NCBI GenBank assembly: GCA_944392615.1
Contig: CALXXF010000004.1
Span: 5,429-69,428, forward strand
DNA from: an uncultured Clostridia bacterium
GTDB lineage: Bacteria; Bacillota; Clostridia; Oscillospirales; CAG-272
Direction: 5' to 3'
Length of the DNA stretch: 64,000 nucleotides
Positions 8,014-64,000 of the stretch are shown here, piece by piece (position 1 is the stretch's first letter; every line of letters begins with the position of its first letter). Made by a program: the position numbers and the translations under genes. The notes under the pieces are model-generated. The model did not search any database, had not been told where the DNA came from, and saw only the letters and a list, made by a program, of their open reading frames with translations.

Positions 8014-9186
8014 ATGGCTGGAAACGAAAACAAGCTTCTCGATGCTTTTAAGGAAAATCAGACCGTCGAGAAAATAGACCAAAACAGAAAGCTCAGGGTG
8101 GGTATCATAGGATGCGGCTGGATAGCCGAAGCACATGTCGTTGAATACAAAAGAATGCCTGATGTAGAGATTGTTGCCGGTGCAGATCTTGTTCCCGGAA
8201 AAGCAGAGGCGTTTTTCAAGAGAATGGGACTTGAGGGTGTGAGATGCTATCCCGATCACAAATCTATGCTTGATGCGGAGGAGCTCGACGCTGTAAGCGT
8301 ATGCACCTACAACGTCACGCACGCAGTGTGCGCTATATACGCGCTTGAAAAGGGCGTGAATGTTCTTCTTGAAAAGCCAATGTCGGTTACTCTGGACGAA
8401 GCTGTCGAAATACGCCGCGCCGAAAAGAAAAGCGGAAAAATACTGTCGATAGGTTTCCAGCCCAGATTTGACCCCAACATGAAGATGATAAAAAAGATAG
8501 TACAGTCGGGAGAGCTCGGAAAGGTGTATTACATACAGACCGGCGGCGGCAGAAGGCGCGGTATTCCCACTCCGTTCGGCACATCCTTCATTGCAAAGGA
8601 TACAGGCGGCATTGGAGCCATGGGCGATATCGGATGCTATTCTCTTGACATGGTGATGAATGCGCTTGGATATCCTAAGCCTATAACAATAAGCGGTTAT
8701 AAATCGGCGTATTTCGGAACTGACCCCAATTTCTTCCTTGCAGAAGGAAAGCCCGCATATCTTGCAGAAAAATTTGAGGTTGAGGATTTTGCAGCGGGAT
8801 TTGTACGTCTTGAAGGAGACATAATCCTTGATTTCAGGATCGCTTGGGCGATGAACCTCGACACCCCCGGAGATACCATCATAATGGGAACAAAAGGCTC
8901 GCTCCGTATTCCTTCCACAGAATGCTGGAACGGCTCTGTAGGCGGACCTATGAAAATATATCATGAGGTTTGCGGAGAGGCTGTTGAGACCATAATACCT
9001 ATAATCCCCGATCACTCAAAGGGACTTTTCTATCAGAAGATACGTTCGTTCCTGAATGCTGTAAAGGACGGAGGAACCTCTCCGGTGCCGTCTGACGAAA
9101 TTATAATAAATCAGGCTATAATAGACGGAATAGTGAAGTCGAGCGAGCTCGGTCACGAGATAACCGTGGAAATTCCGGAAGTCTGA
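8014..9186 (+). CDS. Gfo/Idh/MocA-family NAD(P)-dependent sugar oxidoreductase
   Basis: Rossmann motif VGIIGCGWIAEAH and an EKP motif (LLEKPMS). GGGAGG lies 7 nt upstream of the ATG at 8014. Confidence 0.85.
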   Translation: MAGNENKLLDAFKENQTVEKIDQNRKLRVGIIGCGWIAEAHVVEYKRMPDVEIVAGADLVPGKAEAFFKRMGLEGVRCYPDHKSMLDAEELDAVSVCTYNVTHAVCAIYALEKGVNVLLEKPMSVTLDEAVEIRRAEKKSGKILSIGFQPRFDPNMKMIKKIVQSGELGKVYYIQTGGGRRRGIPTPFGTSFIAKDTGGIGAMGDIGCYSLDMVMNALGYPKPITISGYKSAYFGTDPNFFLAEGKPAYLAEKFEVEDFAAGFVRLEGDIILDFRIAWAMNLDTPGDTIIMGTKGSLRIPSTECWNGSVGGPMKIYHEVCGEAVETIIPIIPDHSKGLFYQKIRSFLNAVKDGGTSPVPSDEIIINQAIIDGIVKSSELGHEITVEIPEV

Positions 9187-29269: not shown

Positions 29270-29531
29270 ATAAAAAATGCGTCCTGCTTCAACAGGACGC
29301 ATTTCATTTGCGCGGTACCACCTGAATTACGCAACGTATTCTGACGCTGCGTCTCTTGATATTCCTGTAACGCATGGAAACGCGGGAGGGGCTACTTAAG
29401 TTCACCCTTCCGGCTCCGGGGCGACCTTCCTCCGCAGTCTGCGGTGCGGCTTCTCAGCATACGCCGCTCTCTGTGACCCGACTTTCGGTTACTGCTCCCC
29501 ATCTCAGCCTTTATATCTGAAAACATATAAC
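29270..29531 (-). promoter_or_regulatory. T-box leader (Val) controlling valS
   Basis: On the minus strand: UGAGAU K-turn, AGUA, AGAGAG bulge, and a specifier loop GAAG-GUC-G (GUC at 29423-29425). The T-box sequence AGGTGGTACCGCGC is at 29301-29317. The terminator AATGCGTCCTG/CAGGACGCATT plus a T6 run is at 29270-29303. Confidence 0.85.
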
Positions 29532-44843: not shown

Positions 44844-44878
44844 GGGACCTGCAGAATATGCAGGTCCCTGTCTTTTTT
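44844..44878 (+). terminator. Rho-independent terminator
   Basis: GGGACCTGCA-GAATA-TGCAGGTCCC followed by TGTCTTTTTT. Confidence 0.85.
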
Positions 44879-45119
44879 ACGCACCAGGAGTGAAATTATC
44901 GCTGCTCATTGTGAAACCATCCTGCCGTCACGCCGCCGCTGTCACCTGTGTCTTTTTCAAAACGCAGTCTAACGATATCTGTGAAAAACAAATGCTGAAA
45001 TTGCCGGAGCATTTTGCTTGCTTGTGCCGGCAGACTTTTTGATAAAAGTATTACTTGACATTTTTCGCCGTTCGGTATATCATATAGCCGTGTTAAGTAG
45101 CTTAGGGGGAATGTGTAAC

Positions 45120-47210
45120 ATGTCAGATTTTGATAAGAAATTTGCTACAAAGGTGTTTTCCGACAGGGTCATGCGTGAGCGACTTACGCCGGGGACTTAT
45201 GAGGAGCTTCACAAGGTTATTTCTGACGGAGGTGAGCTCGATATATCCATTGCCAACGACGTTGCCGAGGCAATGAAGGAGTGGGCAATGGAAAACGGCG
45301 CGACTCACTACACACATTGGTTTCAGCCCATGACCGGAATAACAGCTGAAAAGCACGATGCCTTTATAAAAATTCAGAAGGACGGCAGTGTCATAGCAGA
45401 GTTTTCAGGCAAGAAGCTGATAAAAGGCGAGCCTGATGCGTCTTCATTTCCGTCCGGAGGGTTGAGAGCCACGTTTGAGGCAAGAGGATATACCGCATGG
45501 GATCCCACGTCATACGCTTTTCTCAAATCAAACACGCTTTGCATACCGACGGTTTTCTGTTCTTACAGCGGTCAGGTGCTTGATAAAAAAACTCCGCTGC
45601 TGCGTTCCATAGAAGCTCTTTCTGCCCAGGCGGTCAGGATACTCAGGCTTTTCGGAAAAACAGACGTCACAAGAGTGAATGCCCAGGTGGGAGCGGAACA
45701 GGAGTATTTTCTTATAAGCAAGGAGCTTGCAGCCAAAAGAAGAGATATAACATATACCGGAAGAACACTTTTCGGAGCAAAGCCTCCGAAGGCACAGGAG
45801 CTTGAAGACCATTATTTCGGCTCGCTCAGACCTGAGGTTAAGGAGTTCATGACAGACCTTGACAAAGAGCTATGGGAGCTCGGCATATATGCAAGTACCG
45901 AGCACAATGAGGTCGCTCCTTCCCAGCACGAACTTGCCCCGATCTTTTGCTCCGCAAATATGGCAACGGATCAGAATCAGCTCACAATGGAAATAATGAA
46001 AAAGGTGGCAGACAAACACGGTCTTTGCTGTCTTCTTCACGAAAAGCCCTTTGAGCATATAAACGGGAGCGGCAAGCACAATAACTGGTCACTTTCCACC
46101 AACACCGGTGAAAATCTGTTCAAGCCGGGCAATTCACCGTATGATAATACACAGTTCCTTCTGTTTCTCGCAGCCGTTATAAAGGCTGTGGACGAATATC
46201 AGGATCTTCTGAGGATATCCGTCGCCTCCGCTTCGAACGACCACCGTCTCGGAGCGGCAGAGGCGCCGCCTGCAATAATATCGATATATCTGGGTGATGA
46301 GCTCACTGCAGTTCTCGACGCAATAGCAAAGGGCAAGGAATATTCTGTTGTCAAACGAGGAAAAATGGAAGTCGGAGTAAGCTCGCTTCCGGAATTTGCA
46401 AAAGATACCTCGGACAGAAACAGGACCTCTCCCTTCGCGTTTACGGGAAACAAGTTTGAGTTCAGGATGGTGGGCTCTTCCCAGTCTGTTGCCGACCCGA
46501 ATATGACGCTCAATACTATAATGGCTGACGCGCTTTCCGATTTTGCTGACTTTCTTGAGGCAAACGAGCAAGACGGCGACATCGAAAAAAGGGCGCGGGA
46601 GCTTGTGCGCTCTACGCTCATAGAGCACGGAAGAATAATATTCAACGGAAATAATTACTCGAATGAGTGGACAGAAGAGGCAGAGAGGAGGGGCCTTTGC
46701 AATTACCGCACTGCGGCGGATGCCATACCCCATCTCCGCGACCCCAAAAACATCAAACTCTTTGAAAAGCACAGGATATTCACAGAGGCGGAGATAGACT
46801 CGCGAACCGAAATAATGCTTGAAAATTATTTCAAGGTTGTCAAAATAGAAGCGCAGACAATGCTCGCAATGGTGCGCTGCGATATAATGCCCGCGGTTTA
46901 TTCATATATAGAAAAACTGTCAAAAATGATAATAGACAAGCGCACGGCAGGGCTTCCCGACGGAAGGGAAAACGATACAGCACGCCGTATCTGCGCCGGA
47001 GCGGATGAGCTTTACGACGCAGTCGGAGTCCTTGACAAGGCAATAGCCGGTTCCGATTCACCCGCTGACGCAGAGGCGGCAGCATTTTACATGAAAAACG
47101 AGGTGCTTCCGGCAATGCAGGATGTAAGGGCTGTGTCCGATGCGCTTGAAACAAATATAGGAAGGGAATACTGGCCGTTCCCCGTTTACGGCGACATAAT
47201 ACTTCACTGA
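45120..47210 (+). CDS. glnN: Glutamine synthetase type III (paralog 1)
   Basis: 696 aa. [51 protein letters not shown] and [10 protein letters not shown]. The ATG at 45120 follows AGGGGGA. A TTGACA-17-TATCAT promoter lies at 45055-45083. Confidence 0.9.
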   Translation: MSDFDKKFATKVFSDRVMRERLTPGTYEELHKVISDGGELDISIANDVAEAMKEWAMENGATHYTHWFQPMTGITAEKHDAFIKIQKDGSVIAEFSGKKLIKGEPDASSFPSGGLRATFEARGYTAWDPTSYAFLKSNTLCIPTVFCSYSGQVLDKKTPLLRSIEALSAQAVRILRLFGKTDVTRVNAQVGAEQEYFLISKELAAKRRDITYTGRTLFGAKPPKAQELEDHYFGSLRPEVKEFMTDLDKELWELGIYASTEHNEVAPSQHELAPIFCSANMATDQNQLTMEIMKKVADKHGLCCLLHEKPFEHINGSGKHNNWSLSTNTGENLFKPGNSPYDNTQFLLFLAAVIKAVDEYQDLLRISVASASNDHRLGAAEAPPAIISIYLGDELTAVLDAIAKGKEYSVVKRGKMEVGVSSLPEFAKDTSDRNRTSPFAFTGNKFEFRMVGSSQSVADPNMTLNTIMADALSDFADFLEANEQDGDIEKRARELVRSTLIEHGRIIFNGNNYSNEWTEEAERRGLCNYRTAADAIPHLRDPKNIKLFEKHRIFTEAEIDSRTEIMLENYFKVVKIEAQTMLAMVRCDIMPAVYSYIEKLSKMIIDKRTAGLPDGRENDTARRICAGADELYDAVGVLDKAIAGSDSPADAEAAAFYMKNEVLPAMQDVRAVSDALETNIGREYWPFPVYGDIILH

Positions 47211-52592: not shown

Positions 52593-52890
52593 AAAAAAAC
52601 GTCCTCTGTTTTCAAAACAGAGGACGAAATAATATTCCGTGTTACCACCTCATTTTGCCATTGCCTCACGACTAATGGCCTCACCGAGTACGTTATCATA
52701 CTCTAACGCTTTAACGGGCGTACCCGTCTGCTCCTACACGGACGCCGACAGCTCACAGAATGTGCGTCACGTCTTTCAGAGTGCCGCTGGCGGAATGTAT
52801 TCGCCTGTTTCACACCTGCCGTCTTACACCAGCCGACGGCTCTCTGCAAGGTTGTGATGAGGCTACTTGTTTCCGTTCATCGCGTTTATG
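52593..52890 (-). promoter_or_regulatory. T-box leader with a UAC (Tyr) specifier
   Basis: On the minus strand: GCGAUGA K-turn, CGGAA helix, AGUA, AGAGAG bulge, a distal hairpin CCGUC...GACGG, and the specifier GAA-UAC-A abutting UUCCG (UAC at 52797-52799). The T-box sequence AATGAGGTGGTAACACGG is near 52641-52658. The terminator CGTCCTCTGTTTT/AAAACAGAGGACG plus a T7 run is at 52593-52626. Confidence 0.8.
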
Positions 52891-56494: not shown

Positions 56495-56576
56495 TTTTCC
56501 AGCTCCTTTGCCGTTTTATTCTGCAAATACCGATACAAAAGCGAAGAACCAAAAATCCAAACCGCATGCGGGGACA

Positions 56577-61154: not shown

Positions 61155-63251
61155 TTATCTCACGCCGAAAAGAAGTTCGCCATACGAGGGATATGGCCAG
61201 TACTCTGCTTTGCATATCTGCTCCGCCTCGTCAACCGCAGCACGAAGCTTTTGCATGTCGGGGATGATCACATCCTTGTATCTGAAGGAAAGAGTTTCAA
61301 GATCCGGAGCGTCCTTGACAGAAGAGAGGTCGTCAGAAAGGGCGCTGTCATATTCGTCTATGGCAGACGAGAGGGAAGAGAGTTTCCTTATGAGCTTCTC
61401 CTCATATGTGCAGTCGATACCGGATACGGCCGCTTTTTTTGCGGTGCAGGTCTCTGCCACATCCTTGGTATACGCCCCTATTGCGGGAAGTATATCCTTG
61501 CGGACCATATCTGTCATGGTCATTGCCTCTATGTTCAGTGTCTTGCAGTAGTTGTCAAGGAGTATTTCGTGTCTTGACGAAATTTCAGCAACGCTGTAAA
61601 CCTTGTGCTCGGTGAAAATCTTCAGGTTCTTTGCGTCAAGGAGATGTGCCATGGCGTCAGGCGTTGTCTTGAGGTTGAGAAGTCCGCGCTTGTTCTGCGC
61701 CTCCTCGATCCACGCGTCGTCGTATCCATTTCCGTTGAAGATTATCCGCTTGTGTGCCTTTATCGTGGATTTGATGAGTTCATTGAGCGCCGTCTCAAAA
61801 TCCTCTGCCTTTTCGAGAATGTCCGCATACTGGCGAAGCGATTCCGCAACGGCAACGTTAAGCATTATGTTCGTGCAGGCGATGGAGTTTGCAGATCCCA
61901 GCATCCTGAATTCAAATTTGTTTCCTGTGAAGGCAAACGGAGAGGTTCTGTTTCTGTCGGTCGTGTCTTTCGGAAGCTTGGGCAGGACATGCACGCCGAG
62001 CTTGAGCTGCGTCTTTTCGGTCTTGTCGTAATGAGTGCCTTTTTCTATTGCCTCAAGGACTGCCGTCAGCTCATCTCCGAGAAATATTGACACAACTGCC
62101 GGGGGCGCTTCGTTTGCACCGAGACGATGGTCGTTTCCGGCGGTGGCGACAGCGATCCTCAGAAGATCCTGGTAATCATCAACTGCCTGTATCACGGCGA
62201 CAAGGAAAAGAAGAAATTGAGCGTTCTCATAGGGCGTTTCACCCGGTGCAAGAAGATTTATCCCTGTGTTTGTGCCTATTGACCAGTTGTTGTGCTTGCC
62301 GCTTCCGTTTACGCCGGCAAATGGCTTCTCATGGAGCAGACAGACAAGAGAATGCTTCTTTGCTATTTTCTGCATTATCTCCATTGTCAGCTGATTGTGG
62401 TCGGTCGCCACGTTGGCTGTCGTGTATATTGGGGCAAGCTCGTGCTGCGCCGGGGCAACCTCGTTGTGTTCGGTTTTGGCAAGTATCCCAAGCTTCCACA
62501 ATTCCTCGTTCAGCTCAGCCATATAAGCGGCAACTCTCGGCTTTATTGTTGCAAAATAATGGTCTTCGAGCTCCTGACCTTTCGGAGGTCTTGCTCCGAA
62601 AAGTGTCCTTCCCGTGTATATGAGGTCCTTACGCTTGTCGTAGGCATCTTTATCAACAAGAAAGTATTCCTGTTCAGGTCCTACAGATGTACGCACGCAC
62701 GCCACATCTGTGTGTCCGAAAAGACGCAATATTCTCATTGCCTGCTTGTTGACAGCTTCCATTGAGCGGAGCAAGGGAGTCTTTTTGTCAAGAGCTTCAC
62801 CGCCGTAGGAGCAGAATGCTGTCGGTATGCAGAGCGTCTTTTCCTTTATGAAAGCATATGAGGTCGGATCCCAGGCCGTATAGCCTCTTGCTTCAAACGT
62901 AGCTCTCAGACCGCCTGATGGAAATGAAGAGGCGTCCGGCTCTCCGCGGACAAGTTCCTTGCCCGAAAATTCCATTATGACCTTCCCGTCTGCTGTCGGG
63001 GAAATAAAGCTGTCGTGCTTCTCGGCGGTTATACCGGTCATCGGCTGGAACCAATGTGTATAGTGAGTGGCGCCGTTCTTCACAGCCCAGTCCTTCATTG
63101 CGTTGGCAACGATATTTGCCACTCCTATATCAAGGGACTTGCCCTCGTTTATCGTTTTTTTGAGCGATGTATAGGTCTCCTTGGGAAGACATGCCATCAT
63201 GGCGCTGTCGTCAAAGACCATGCTTCCGAAATATTCTGGAATCGTTTTCAT
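61155..63251 (-). CDS. glnN: Glutamine synthetase type III (paralog 2)
   Basis: 698 aa, collinear with paralog 1 and sharing its motifs ([24 protein letters not shown]). AAAGGAG RBS. Confidence 0.9.
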
Positions 63252-63314
63252 TGGTTTCTCCTTTCAGAACCTCTTTCAAAGACGACCGGCATTTTTCATG
63301 CTGCCGGCATTCAG

Positions 63315-63378
63315 AAAAACAAAAAAACGGCAAAGACTGCACAGGAGAGTTCTTTCTCCTGTACGGCGTCTTTGCCGT
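63315..63378 (-). terminator. Leader terminator/attenuator upstream of glnN paralog 2
   Basis: The mRNA-sense sequence is ACGGCAAAGAC GCCGU ACAGGAGA AAGAAC UCUCCUGU GCA GUCUUUGCCGU UUUUUUG. It has an 11-bp basal stem plus an 8-bp apical stem. An alternative 5-bp hairpin, ACGGC-AAAGAC-GCCGU, would sequester the 5' arm. Confidence 0.7.
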
Positions 63379-63388
63379 TCACGCGCTC

Positions 63389-63417
63389 ATTCTATACTAA
63401 CTTTTTTGACTTGTCAA
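63389..63417 (-). promoter_or_regulatory. Putative sigma-A promoter of glnN paralog 2
   Basis: On the minus strand, TTGACA (63412-63417), a 17-bp spacer, then TAGAAT (63389-63394). Confidence 0.6.
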
Positions 63418-63549
63418 GTGCTTTTTGCCAAAAAAACCGAATATTTTTTGATTTTTTGCAAAAAAGACAATATGTTTCGAGCAGCTGTGCAAGCTATTGT
63501 CTATTTCGCCGAAGGTTGCCACACAGTGTAAAAAACTGACCTCAACCTA

Positions 63550-63577
63550 TTGACATTTTACGTGACTTCTTTATAAT
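63550..63577 (+). promoter_or_regulatory. Consensus sigma-A promoter with no downstream ORF
   Basis: TTGACA (63550-63555), a 16-bp spacer, then TATAAT (63572-63577). Confidence 0.6.
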
Positions 63578-63583
63578 TATTAG

Positions 63584-63643
63584 ATGGAACAACGGGGTTC
63601 TGTTGCGGGGTACGTGTCCCTTGAGCTCACCGTTGTTTTTTTT
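63584..63643 (+). ncRNA. Candidate small RNA of about 60 nt, or an orphan leader ending in a terminator
   Basis: AACAACGG (63588-63595) pairs with CCGTTGTT (63630-63637), followed by a T8 run. The interior contains GGGGTACGTGTCCC. No plus-strand ORF follows. Confidence 0.4.
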
Positions 63644-64000
63644 GTTTGGTTTTTGCATATGACTCCTTTATTGCATGTAAAGCTGGCTTGGGTCATGCAT
63701 TCAGCCCTGCAAACTGCCGCTTTGCAGTGACATGTCAGAGTCGTAAGGAAAAGCCTTGTCGCTTTTGAACACGCTCCTGCAGGAGGCTTCATGCTTCATA
63801 TATGCCAAAGATATGTTGAAACATGTCGTAACAACGAGATTTTACGTGTTGTTAACAAATAATGCTGATGCAGGAGTTATAATATAATGTCAGGCATGAT
63901 CTTTCTTTTTCGGCTGGTCTTTCTACAGAGAGGTATGTTATAATTTAAAAGTCCGAAGACATCCGGTAGCTCGAACAAGTATAACAAAGACTGGTCCGCA

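Follow-up and report, generated by a model that had tools for sequence, protein, structure and literature searches.

The stretch of contig CALXXF010000004.1 analysed here in its full length of 64 kb (hereafter the window), from an uncultured Clostridia bacterium of the CAG-272 lineage, encodes two type III glutamine synthetases. The gene for one of them, glnN, is preceded by a leader which most likely acts as a transcription attenuator under the control of a protein, as described for the ANTAR-domain regulators GnfR and NitR. At the sequence level, this assignment is supported by the conservation of a small hairpin, P1, in the leaders of related glnN genes, by covariation within its stem, by the linkage of the motif with genes for ANTAR proteins, and by the identity of the family motif with a site bound experimentally by such a protein. 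Binding of the protein to this RNA and the direction of the nitrogen signal are what we infer from these data.

As glnN lies on the minus strand, its leader was read as the reverse complement (Table 1). Transcription presumably starts at about 63383-63381, with only 10 bases between the -10 box and P1. This hairpin consists of a 5′ arm ACGGC (63378-63374), a hexaloop AAAGAC (63373-63368) with A at loop position 1 (A1, 63373) and G at position 4 (G4, 63370), and a 3′ arm GCCGU (63367-63363). The apical hairpin of the terminator is separated by GCA from the terminator 3′ strand GUCUUUGCCGU. A previous interpretation of the same DNA without database searches (the sequence-only reading) had described the promoter, the terminator with its U-run, P1 and a second hairpin with loop AAGAAC, and all of these hold on the minus strand. 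Other regulatory elements were not apparent: comparison of the glnN leader with Rfam 15, both at gathering thresholds and with E ≤ 10, produced chance-level matches only and no fitting family, no T-box was found there, and no TnrA/GlnR box (TGTNAN7TNACA) was found in 63252-64000. Counts of k-mers 5′ of the promoters yielded TTGACAA and A/T runs only, with no second protein site.

Folding of the leader points to a switch. The minimum-free-energy terminator comprises 23 bp at -37.0 kcal/mol, and the 181-nt leader region folds with a z-score of -4.4 relative to shuffled sequences; P1 alone contributes -7.9 kcal/mol, and P1 together with the 8-bp apical hairpin -19.9 kcal/mol. When prefixes of increasing length are folded, P1 appears first and is kept until the terminator 3′ strand has been added, at which point the terminator wins. 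The default is therefore to stop, and something must hold P1 for read-through to occur. When P1 is enforced, no hairpin abuts the U-run; the strong hairpin that remains, the apical one, ends 14 nt short of the U-run and for this reason cannot terminate transcription. P1 is thus a hairpin whose formation excludes the terminator, and a default stop that is relieved when P1 is held is the logic of protein-mediated antitermination.

The P1 design is widespread among relatives. A scan for GlnN with one genome retained per species yielded 80 loci, mostly from uncultured Clostridia and with 65-73% protein identity. The 330 nt 5′ of each glnN were searched for units, defined as a 3-8 bp hairpin with a C-G closing pair, a hexaloop and an overlapping terminator. 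Fifty-seven units in 45 of the 80 loci share the design of P1 and align without gaps over 24 columns, with consensus AAAGGC-AAnGGC-GUCUU and core GGC[AAnGGC]GYC. The closing C (column 9), loop G4 (column 13) and the closing G (column 16) are invariant, and loop positions A1 and A2 reach a conservation of 90% or more. Across the alignment 86% of P1 pair cells are paired, and changes on both sides of a pair occur in 47 cells, compared to 19.6 ± 3.2 in shuffles (none of 500 reaching 47) and to 6-20 when the partner column is slid. The cleanest evidence for covariation comes from the fourth pair (columns 6-19), which was not subject to selection in assembling the units, and which is AU in 33 sequences, CG in 16 and unpaired in 4. 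In the 80 leaders we counted 55 hairpins with an A1/G4 hexaloop closed by C-G in sense orientation and 14 in antisense, compared to 3.9 ± 1.9 in shuffles; without the C-G closing pair, such hairpins are no more frequent than by chance. The overlap with the terminator is equally general: the lowest-energy hairpin next to the U-run draws on P1 nucleotides for its 5′ arm in 58 of 59 units, most commonly (38/58) in such a way that this arm is made of the P1 loop and 3′ arm. Conservation of P1 in related leaders with compensatory changes in its stem, which the sequence-only reading had named as a point to check, is thus borne out.

Six metagenome contigs of the same species (L001-L006), found by an exact look-up of GlnN and encoding the identical protein, differ from the window in their intergenic DNA by few substitutions and short indels only. 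Polymorphism within P1 is confined to loop position 3 (63371, A to G in L005), a variable position of the consensus, and leaves A1, G4 and the stem intact; the U-run varies by one U at 63326 (L005) and by a 9-nt insertion at about 63320-63322 (L004). A covariance model (R2) built from 57 units of other species only was run over the whole window on both strands with filters off, and its top match is P1 (63382-63359, minus strand; 20.8 bits, E ~0.001). The next matches, at 15.6 and 15.3 bits, both lack a terminator.

A candidate regulator is encoded close to the leader. No ANTAR open reading frame is found in the 64-kb window with a profile hidden Markov model of 16 NitR-like orthologues (no match at E ≤ 10), in agreement with what had been noted from the sequence alone. 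In all six contigs with identical GlnN, a gene for a 410-aa type I glutamine synthetase (glnA) lies just past the window end in divergent orientation to glnN, and is directly followed by an ANTAR gene whose start is about 2.0 kb from P1 in window-equivalent coordinates. The sequence-only reading had taken the absence of an ANTAR protein from the genome as an argument against its own proposal; the same-species contigs provide a receiver-ANTAR gene. Its product of 199 aa scores 59.6 bits with Pfam ANTAR and, weakly, 32.7 bits with Response_reg, and is homologous to Rv1626, EutV, NasR and AmiR. At least 11 of the 80 loci share the divergent arrangement of ANTAR-glnA and glnN, and an ANTAR gene is present in the flank of 16. 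The motif was detected in 16/16 loci with a flanking ANTAR gene and in 29/64 of the others (Fisher p = 3e-5), a weak test of linkage as an ANTAR gene may also lie outside the 5-kb flank.

The closest experimental parallel is found in Geobacter sulfurreducens, in which the phosphorylated receiver-ANTAR protein GnfR binds RNA carrying CAGGCAAGGGCGCC; mutation of the site abolishes binding, and deletion of gnfR or of gnfK results in premature termination (Ueki & Lovley 2010, PMC2995071). The GnfR site CAGGCAANGGCGCC of these nitrogen-fixation leaders can be written as GGC[AANGGC]GCC, to be compared with CGGC[AAAGAC]GCCG in the glnN leader and GGC[AAnGGC]GYC in the family consensus, although the hairpin reading of the site is not drawn in that paper. 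Compared by eye, the family consensus AAAGGCAAnGGCGUCUU agrees with the GnfR site, and the glnN leader ACGGCAAAGACGCC matches the GnfR consensus at 10 of 13 specified positions, the outer stem and loop position 5 (R) accounting for the mismatches. As with P1, the GnfR sites lie upstream of, and overlap, an intrinsic (Rho-independent) terminator, and both systems combine a receiver-ANTAR regulator with leaders of nitrogen genes (amtB and glnK in Geobacter; glnN, glnA, amt, gdhA and asnA here). They differ in their hosts (Deltaproteobacteria for GnfR, Clostridia for the glnN leader), in their promoters (sigma-54 in Geobacter, strong sigma-70 type here), and in their receivers: GnfR acts as a genuine response regulator that the kinase GnfK activates, while in the protein described here Asn occupies the phospho-acceptor position. 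The gene order resembles that of NitR of Clostridium saccharobutylicum, which is encoded after glnA and is described as an ANTAR antiterminator of genes for glutamine synthetase and glutamate synthase (GOGAT), with a proposed role under nitrogen limitation (PMC6316151, PMC4676874). Here too, the ANTAR gene is located directly 3′ of a type I glnA in a clostridial host. Unlike in the glnA-nitR case, the regulated gene encodes a type III synthetase and is divergent from glnA-ANTAR.

Taken together, these features suggest the following sequence of events. RNA polymerase would start at a strong, constitutive-looking promoter and transcribe P1 first. By default, GUCUUUGCCGU would displace P1 and complete the 23-bp terminator, such that transcription would stop at the U-run and release an RNA of about 55-70 nt. 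Under conditions which we take to be nitrogen limitation, the ANTAR protein from the divergent glnA-ANTAR operon would bind the P1 hexaloop (A1, G4) and the closing C-G pair. With P1 kept folded, only the apical hairpin would form, 14 nt before the U-run, and transcription would read through into glnN. A leader of the same kind on the operon of the regulator would add positive autoregulation.

Several observations weigh against this reading. The receiver domain lacks the phospho-acceptor Asp and has Asn instead, unlike GnfR and EutV. Antitermination by EutV needs both hairpins, correctly spaced (PMC3369931; PMC8934654). The terminator of the glnN leader uses the P1 5′ arm and loop, an arrangement seen in only 2 of 58 units, and the 47 both-side changes were counted in curated units selected for at least three paired positions, of which only the outer pairs are free of selection.

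The number of hexaloops read by the protein deserves closer attention. The ANTAR target defined by Ramesh et al. (2012) consists of two hairpins with A1/G4 hexaloops, joined by a linker, and a terminator overlapping the second hairpin, P2; matches to such RNAs were listed 5′ of glutamine synthetase/ANTAR gene pairs, asparagine synthase genes and ammonium transporter genes in Clostridia and relatives (PMC3369931, Table S2). More recently, the EutV dimer was found to contact one hexaloop, with G4 stacked on Tyr164, and the minimal motif was redefined as a single hexaloop, although antitermination in eut was still found to depend on two loops at the right spacing (Walshe et al. 2022, PMC8934654). 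In a 2025 review, every ANTAR target is given as a dual hairpin, and NitR is absent (PMC12591593). Like the targets of EutV (eut), NasR (nasF) and AmiR (amiE), the element described here features a hairpin of at least 3 bp with an A1/G4 hexaloop that excludes a terminator, an ANTAR regulator and a nitrogen theme. Unlike them, it has one conserved hexaloop, at the 5′ end of the transcript and with no upstream partner, next to a neighbouring hairpin that is variable; a single conserved hairpin overlapped by the terminator is the role of the canonical P2. Among 46 related units close to a promoter, 37 have one of the TTGACA type, with a -10 box that ends 7-16 nt (median 10) before P1. The transcript therefore starts at most a few bases before P1, and an upstream partner hairpin is excluded.

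A downstream partner would make the glnN leader a canonical dual-hexaloop target, with the protein engaging P1 and GGAG[AAAGAA]CUCU after a 3-nt linker, both incompatible with the terminator, and this we regard as unlikely. The sequence-only reading had placed the two hairpins side by side with G at position 3 of the second loop, which is correct for the stable register (loop AAGAAC, 0-nt linker from P1), whereas the re-registered hairpin GGAG[AAAGAA]CUCU (63359-63346, linker ACA) does have A1, G4 and at least 3 bp. This alternative register adds only about -2.5 kcal/mol, and is less stable by about 9.5 kcal/mol than the 8-bp register (-10.4 versus -19.9 kcal/mol for the whole fold). A second A1/G4 hexaloop before the U-run is seen in 10 of 59 units, more than in shuffles (3.5 ± 1.8), and a pair of hairpins is what EutV requires for antitermination, but the other 49 units have none, and A1/G4 hexaloops without the C-G closing pair do not rise above chance in the 80 leaders. 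As to spacing, eut linkers measure 5-12 nt and 3 or 14 nt impairs function (PMC3369931), the shortening of the eutP linker to 3 nt having drastically lowered induction, so that the 0-3 nt of the glnN leader fall outside the eut range, with 3 nt being inside the broader range of 2-25 nt of Mehta 2021. Across the family the second hairpin varies in sequence and in the size of its apical loop (3-8 nt), and in its stable register it is the tip of the terminator itself, with the terminator overlapping P1, contrary to the dual-hexaloop definition. The competition between a terminator and an ANTAR-type hexaloop hairpin put forward earlier thus stands for P1, which is conserved and overlapped by the terminator, but an adjacent pair of hexaloops finds no support as a conserved design. 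The conserved unit appears to be a single hexaloop hairpin which is itself the antiterminator, and one hexaloop would then presumably be sufficient for antitermination.

Other explanations for the leader are less credible still. The likeness of P1 to an ANTAR site might be incidental, the leader being an unregulated attenuator, an RNA-stability element or a target of some other factor. A generic script scan for an A1/G4 hexaloop hairpin with an overlapping terminator is indeed unspecific (8 instances in the window, compared to 5 when the sequence is reversed and 1-3 when it is shuffled), and was set aside for the comparative models. Chance resemblance is nevertheless very improbable given loop letters and a closing pair that are kept while stems covary across many genera and before non-homologous nitrogen genes, the tight linkage of the motif with ANTAR genes, its identity with an experimentally bound ANTAR site, and a leader without Rfam family, TnrA/GlnR box or T-box. 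The strong promoters would also give abundant RNAs of about 55-70 nt, each with one binding hairpin when P1 is folded, and sequestration of EutV by a hexaloop-bearing small RNA is published (PMC8934654). A terminated transcript titrating the ANTAR protein in the manner of EutX or Rli55, besides or instead of a role in cis, has a slightly lower probability again, for P1 in the terminated RNA is buried in a hairpin of -37 kcal/mol and unavailable for binding, and the element is in every case followed directly by a nitrogen gene in the same orientation. Ribosome-mediated attenuation can be dismissed with near certainty: a 23-codon frame (GTG-AAC-GGC ... TTC-TGA) does extend from about 63381 across the terminator, but its GTG is at or within 1-2 nt of the presumed transcription start and has no Shine-Dalgarno sequence, lengths and frames differ among related leaders, and conservation tracks RNA pairing, with compensatory stem changes, and not codons.

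The ANTAR protein itself departs from the known regulators in its receiver domain. The phospho-acceptor position is Asn (DIIIVN), compared to Asp in EutV (DLVLMD) and Rv1626 (DLVIMD), the acidic pocket reads Ser-Ser-Ser-Glu with Ser/Ala/Thr substitutions across orthologues, and 13 of 14 orthologues from syntenic loci also have Asn, within the motif IN[TAS]PL (Gln in the other one). The domain is thus a conserved pseudo-receiver, and from Asn at the phospho-acceptor position and the altered acidic pocket, activation by a kinase is unlikely. No kinase gene adjoins the ANTAR gene on the contigs with identical GlnN. In this respect the protein resembles AmiR, the receiver-like domain of which also lacks phospho-acceptor residues and which is controlled by its partner AmiC; this shared loss implies control by a partner or a ligand and not by phosphorylation. 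Unlike in the case of AmiR, however, no AmiC- or NasS-like gene is found next to the ANTAR gene, its neighbours being glnA and nucleotide and amidotransferase genes, and similarity to AmiR is weak (E = 0.002). The short type I glutamine synthetase is always encoded next to the ANTAR gene, and it is tempting to speculate that this 410-aa GlnA is the partner of the pseudo-receiver protein. In the alignment, the position of EutV Tyr164 is His in the 199-aa protein and Phe in Rv1626. A broader proposal, namely that these leaders represent a class of single-hexaloop ANTAR antiterminators in Clostridia, with a 5′-terminal hairpin serving both as recognition site and as antiterminator, read by a non-phosphorylatable receiver protein with its signal arriving through a partner or ligand, possibly the 410-aa GlnA, is put forward tentatively and is more doubtful than the attenuator assignment itself.

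The glnA gene product is unusually short at 410 aa. On contig L001 (1-9110, minus strand), the genes glnA and ANTAR are followed on the same strand by two guaA-like genes and then by pyrG, purB and purA, the products of which all use glutamine or aspartate nitrogen. The region from glnA-ANTAR through purA may constitute one long nitrogen-controlled operon.

The motif is not confined to glnN. Model R1, applied to the 80 loci, matches further leaders beyond its seed, each with a terminator overlapping the hairpin, in front of genes for an ammonium transporter (amt), gdhA, asnA-glnN operons, a GOGAT-like amidotransferase, gltB, guaA and type I glnA. In these loci, the element immediately precedes a co-oriented nitrogen gene without exception; at a GOGAT-like amidotransferase gene divergent from glnN, for example, P1 reads AUGAGC[AAAGGC]GUUCAU. 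No P1 motif is present in the glnN-asnB intergenic region. The leader of the divergent glnA-ANTAR operon also has a P1-like hairpin and a terminator (Table 1). Its hairpin scores weakly with R2 (9.0 bits, not significant alone), and a hairpin of the GAAC/GUUC class with a terminator also precedes the glnA-ANTAR operons of L007, L023, L024 and L031. If this hairpin is functional, the ANTAR regulator would control its own operon. The glnA leader continues untranslated for about 500 nt past the U8 terminator, to about 64141 outside the window (L001 9111-9700, minus strand), with further promoter-like TATAAT boxes at about 63875 and 63936.

Table 1. Features of the glnN and glnA-ANTAR leaders and associated genes (window coordinates unless indicated otherwise).
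Feature	Position	Strand	Details or basis
glnN, type III glutamine synthetase, 698 aa	61155-63251 (ATG 63251)	-	Pfam GSIII_N, Gln-synt_C, Gln-synt_C-ter
glnN Shine-Dalgarno AAAGGAG	63264-63258	-	sequence
Extra hairpin GCCGGCA-N10-UGCCGGU, without U-run	63285..63308	-	7 bp, 10-nt loop; between terminator and Shine-Dalgarno
Terminator 3′ arm GUCUUUGCCGU (63337-63327), then U7-G-U5 (63327-63315)	63315..63337	-	pairs with P1 5′ arm and loop
Apical hairpin of terminator (second hairpin of the sequence-only reading), ACAGGAGA / AAGAAC / UCUCCUGU	63341..63362	-	fold
P1, candidate antiterminator/ANTAR recognition hairpin, ACGGC[AAAGAC]GCCGU	63363..63378	-	fold, leave-out model and family alignment
glnN sigma-70-type promoter: -35 TTGACA (63417-63412), 17-nt spacer, -10 TAGAAT (63394-63389)	63389..63417	-	11/12 matches
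Divergent glnA-ANTAR operon leader	63550..63643	+	perfect promoter TTGACA-16-TATAAT (63550-63577); P1-like GGAAC[AACGGG]GUUCU (63586-63601)
glnA-ANTAR leader terminator, AACAACGG...CCGUUGUU then U8	63588-63643	+	fold
Receiver-ANTAR gene	L001 7273-7872 (-); window-equivalent ~65380-65979	+	outside window

Tandem P1-terminator units, each with its own terminator, are found 5′ of glnN in L009, L011, L014, L016, L017, L024, L031, L042, L049, L066 and L075, and would represent two successive checkpoints before the gene. In L012, L081, L008 and others, near-perfect palindromic terminators have the whole of P1 as 5′ arm, such that the reverse strand also scores as P1 (e.g. L012 4953-4976, minus strand, 29.7 bits). 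Many units repeat one hexamer in the P1 5′ arm and in the loop (AAAGGC-AAAGGC), so that two pairing registers would be open to the terminator 3′ strand.

Within the window, the extra hairpin between the terminator and the Shine-Dalgarno sequence of glnN shows single-nucleotide polymorphisms among the same-species contigs, in its loop (63297) and in the first base of its stem (63308). The segment CGUCUUUGAAAGAG which follows (63271-63284, minus strand) has GUCUUUG in common with the terminator 3′ arm and is similar to the P1 3′ arm and flank of the family, and the region 63271-63308 may be a remnant of a second P1-terminator unit. The two lower-scoring matches of R2 (15-16 bits, E ~0.05) were rejected as ANTAR targets. 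One of them, at 8196-8219 (plus strand), lies inside an open reading frame and has no terminator. The other, CGGC[AAAGGA]GCUG at 56495-56518 (minus strand), also without terminator, has as its loop the AAAGGAG Shine-Dalgarno sequence of a gene for a metallo-beta-lactamase-fold protein, and probably represents a chance match; it directly precedes the GTG start of that gene, and some actinobacterial ANTAR sites overlap ribosome-binding sites.

The other type III synthetase gene of the window, glnN paralog 1 (45120-47210, plus strand; also GSIII), has its own promoter at about 45056 (TTGACA) and a leader of about 30 nt in which the model scan found no P1 motif, in keeping with the earlier remark that it has essentially no leader. 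An intrinsic terminator (44846-44880, plus strand) follows the gene upstream of it. With this terminator, a separate promoter and a short leader, paralog 1 is an independent unit without attenuator. Different regulation of the two synthetases, proposed previously, is supported at the level of sequence, the attenuator being found, of these two genes, only before glnN at 61155-63251. This offers an explanation of how one of two type III paralogs comes under nitrogen control and the other does not.

Attenuators of nitrogen genes of the GnfR/NitR type are already known, and the points of modest interest in the present case are an architecture with a single, 5′-terminal hexaloop in many Clostridia, and a regulator with a pseudo-receiver. 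With a model of only 24 nt, a nitrogen regulon (glnN, glnA, amt, gdhA, asnA, GOGAT-like, guaA) is defined in many uncultured gut and rumen Clostridia. How widely single-hexaloop sites are used was asked in the EutV structure paper (PMC8934654); dozens of natural leaders with one conserved hexaloop overlapping a terminator make this question approachable with one protein and a 24-nt RNA, and the conserved pseudo-receiver points to a signal input other than the known phosphorylation route. Elsewhere in the window, Rfam detects two T-box leaders above its gathering threshold, at 29290-29514 and 52617-52889 (both minus strand; 122 and 111 bits, respectively).

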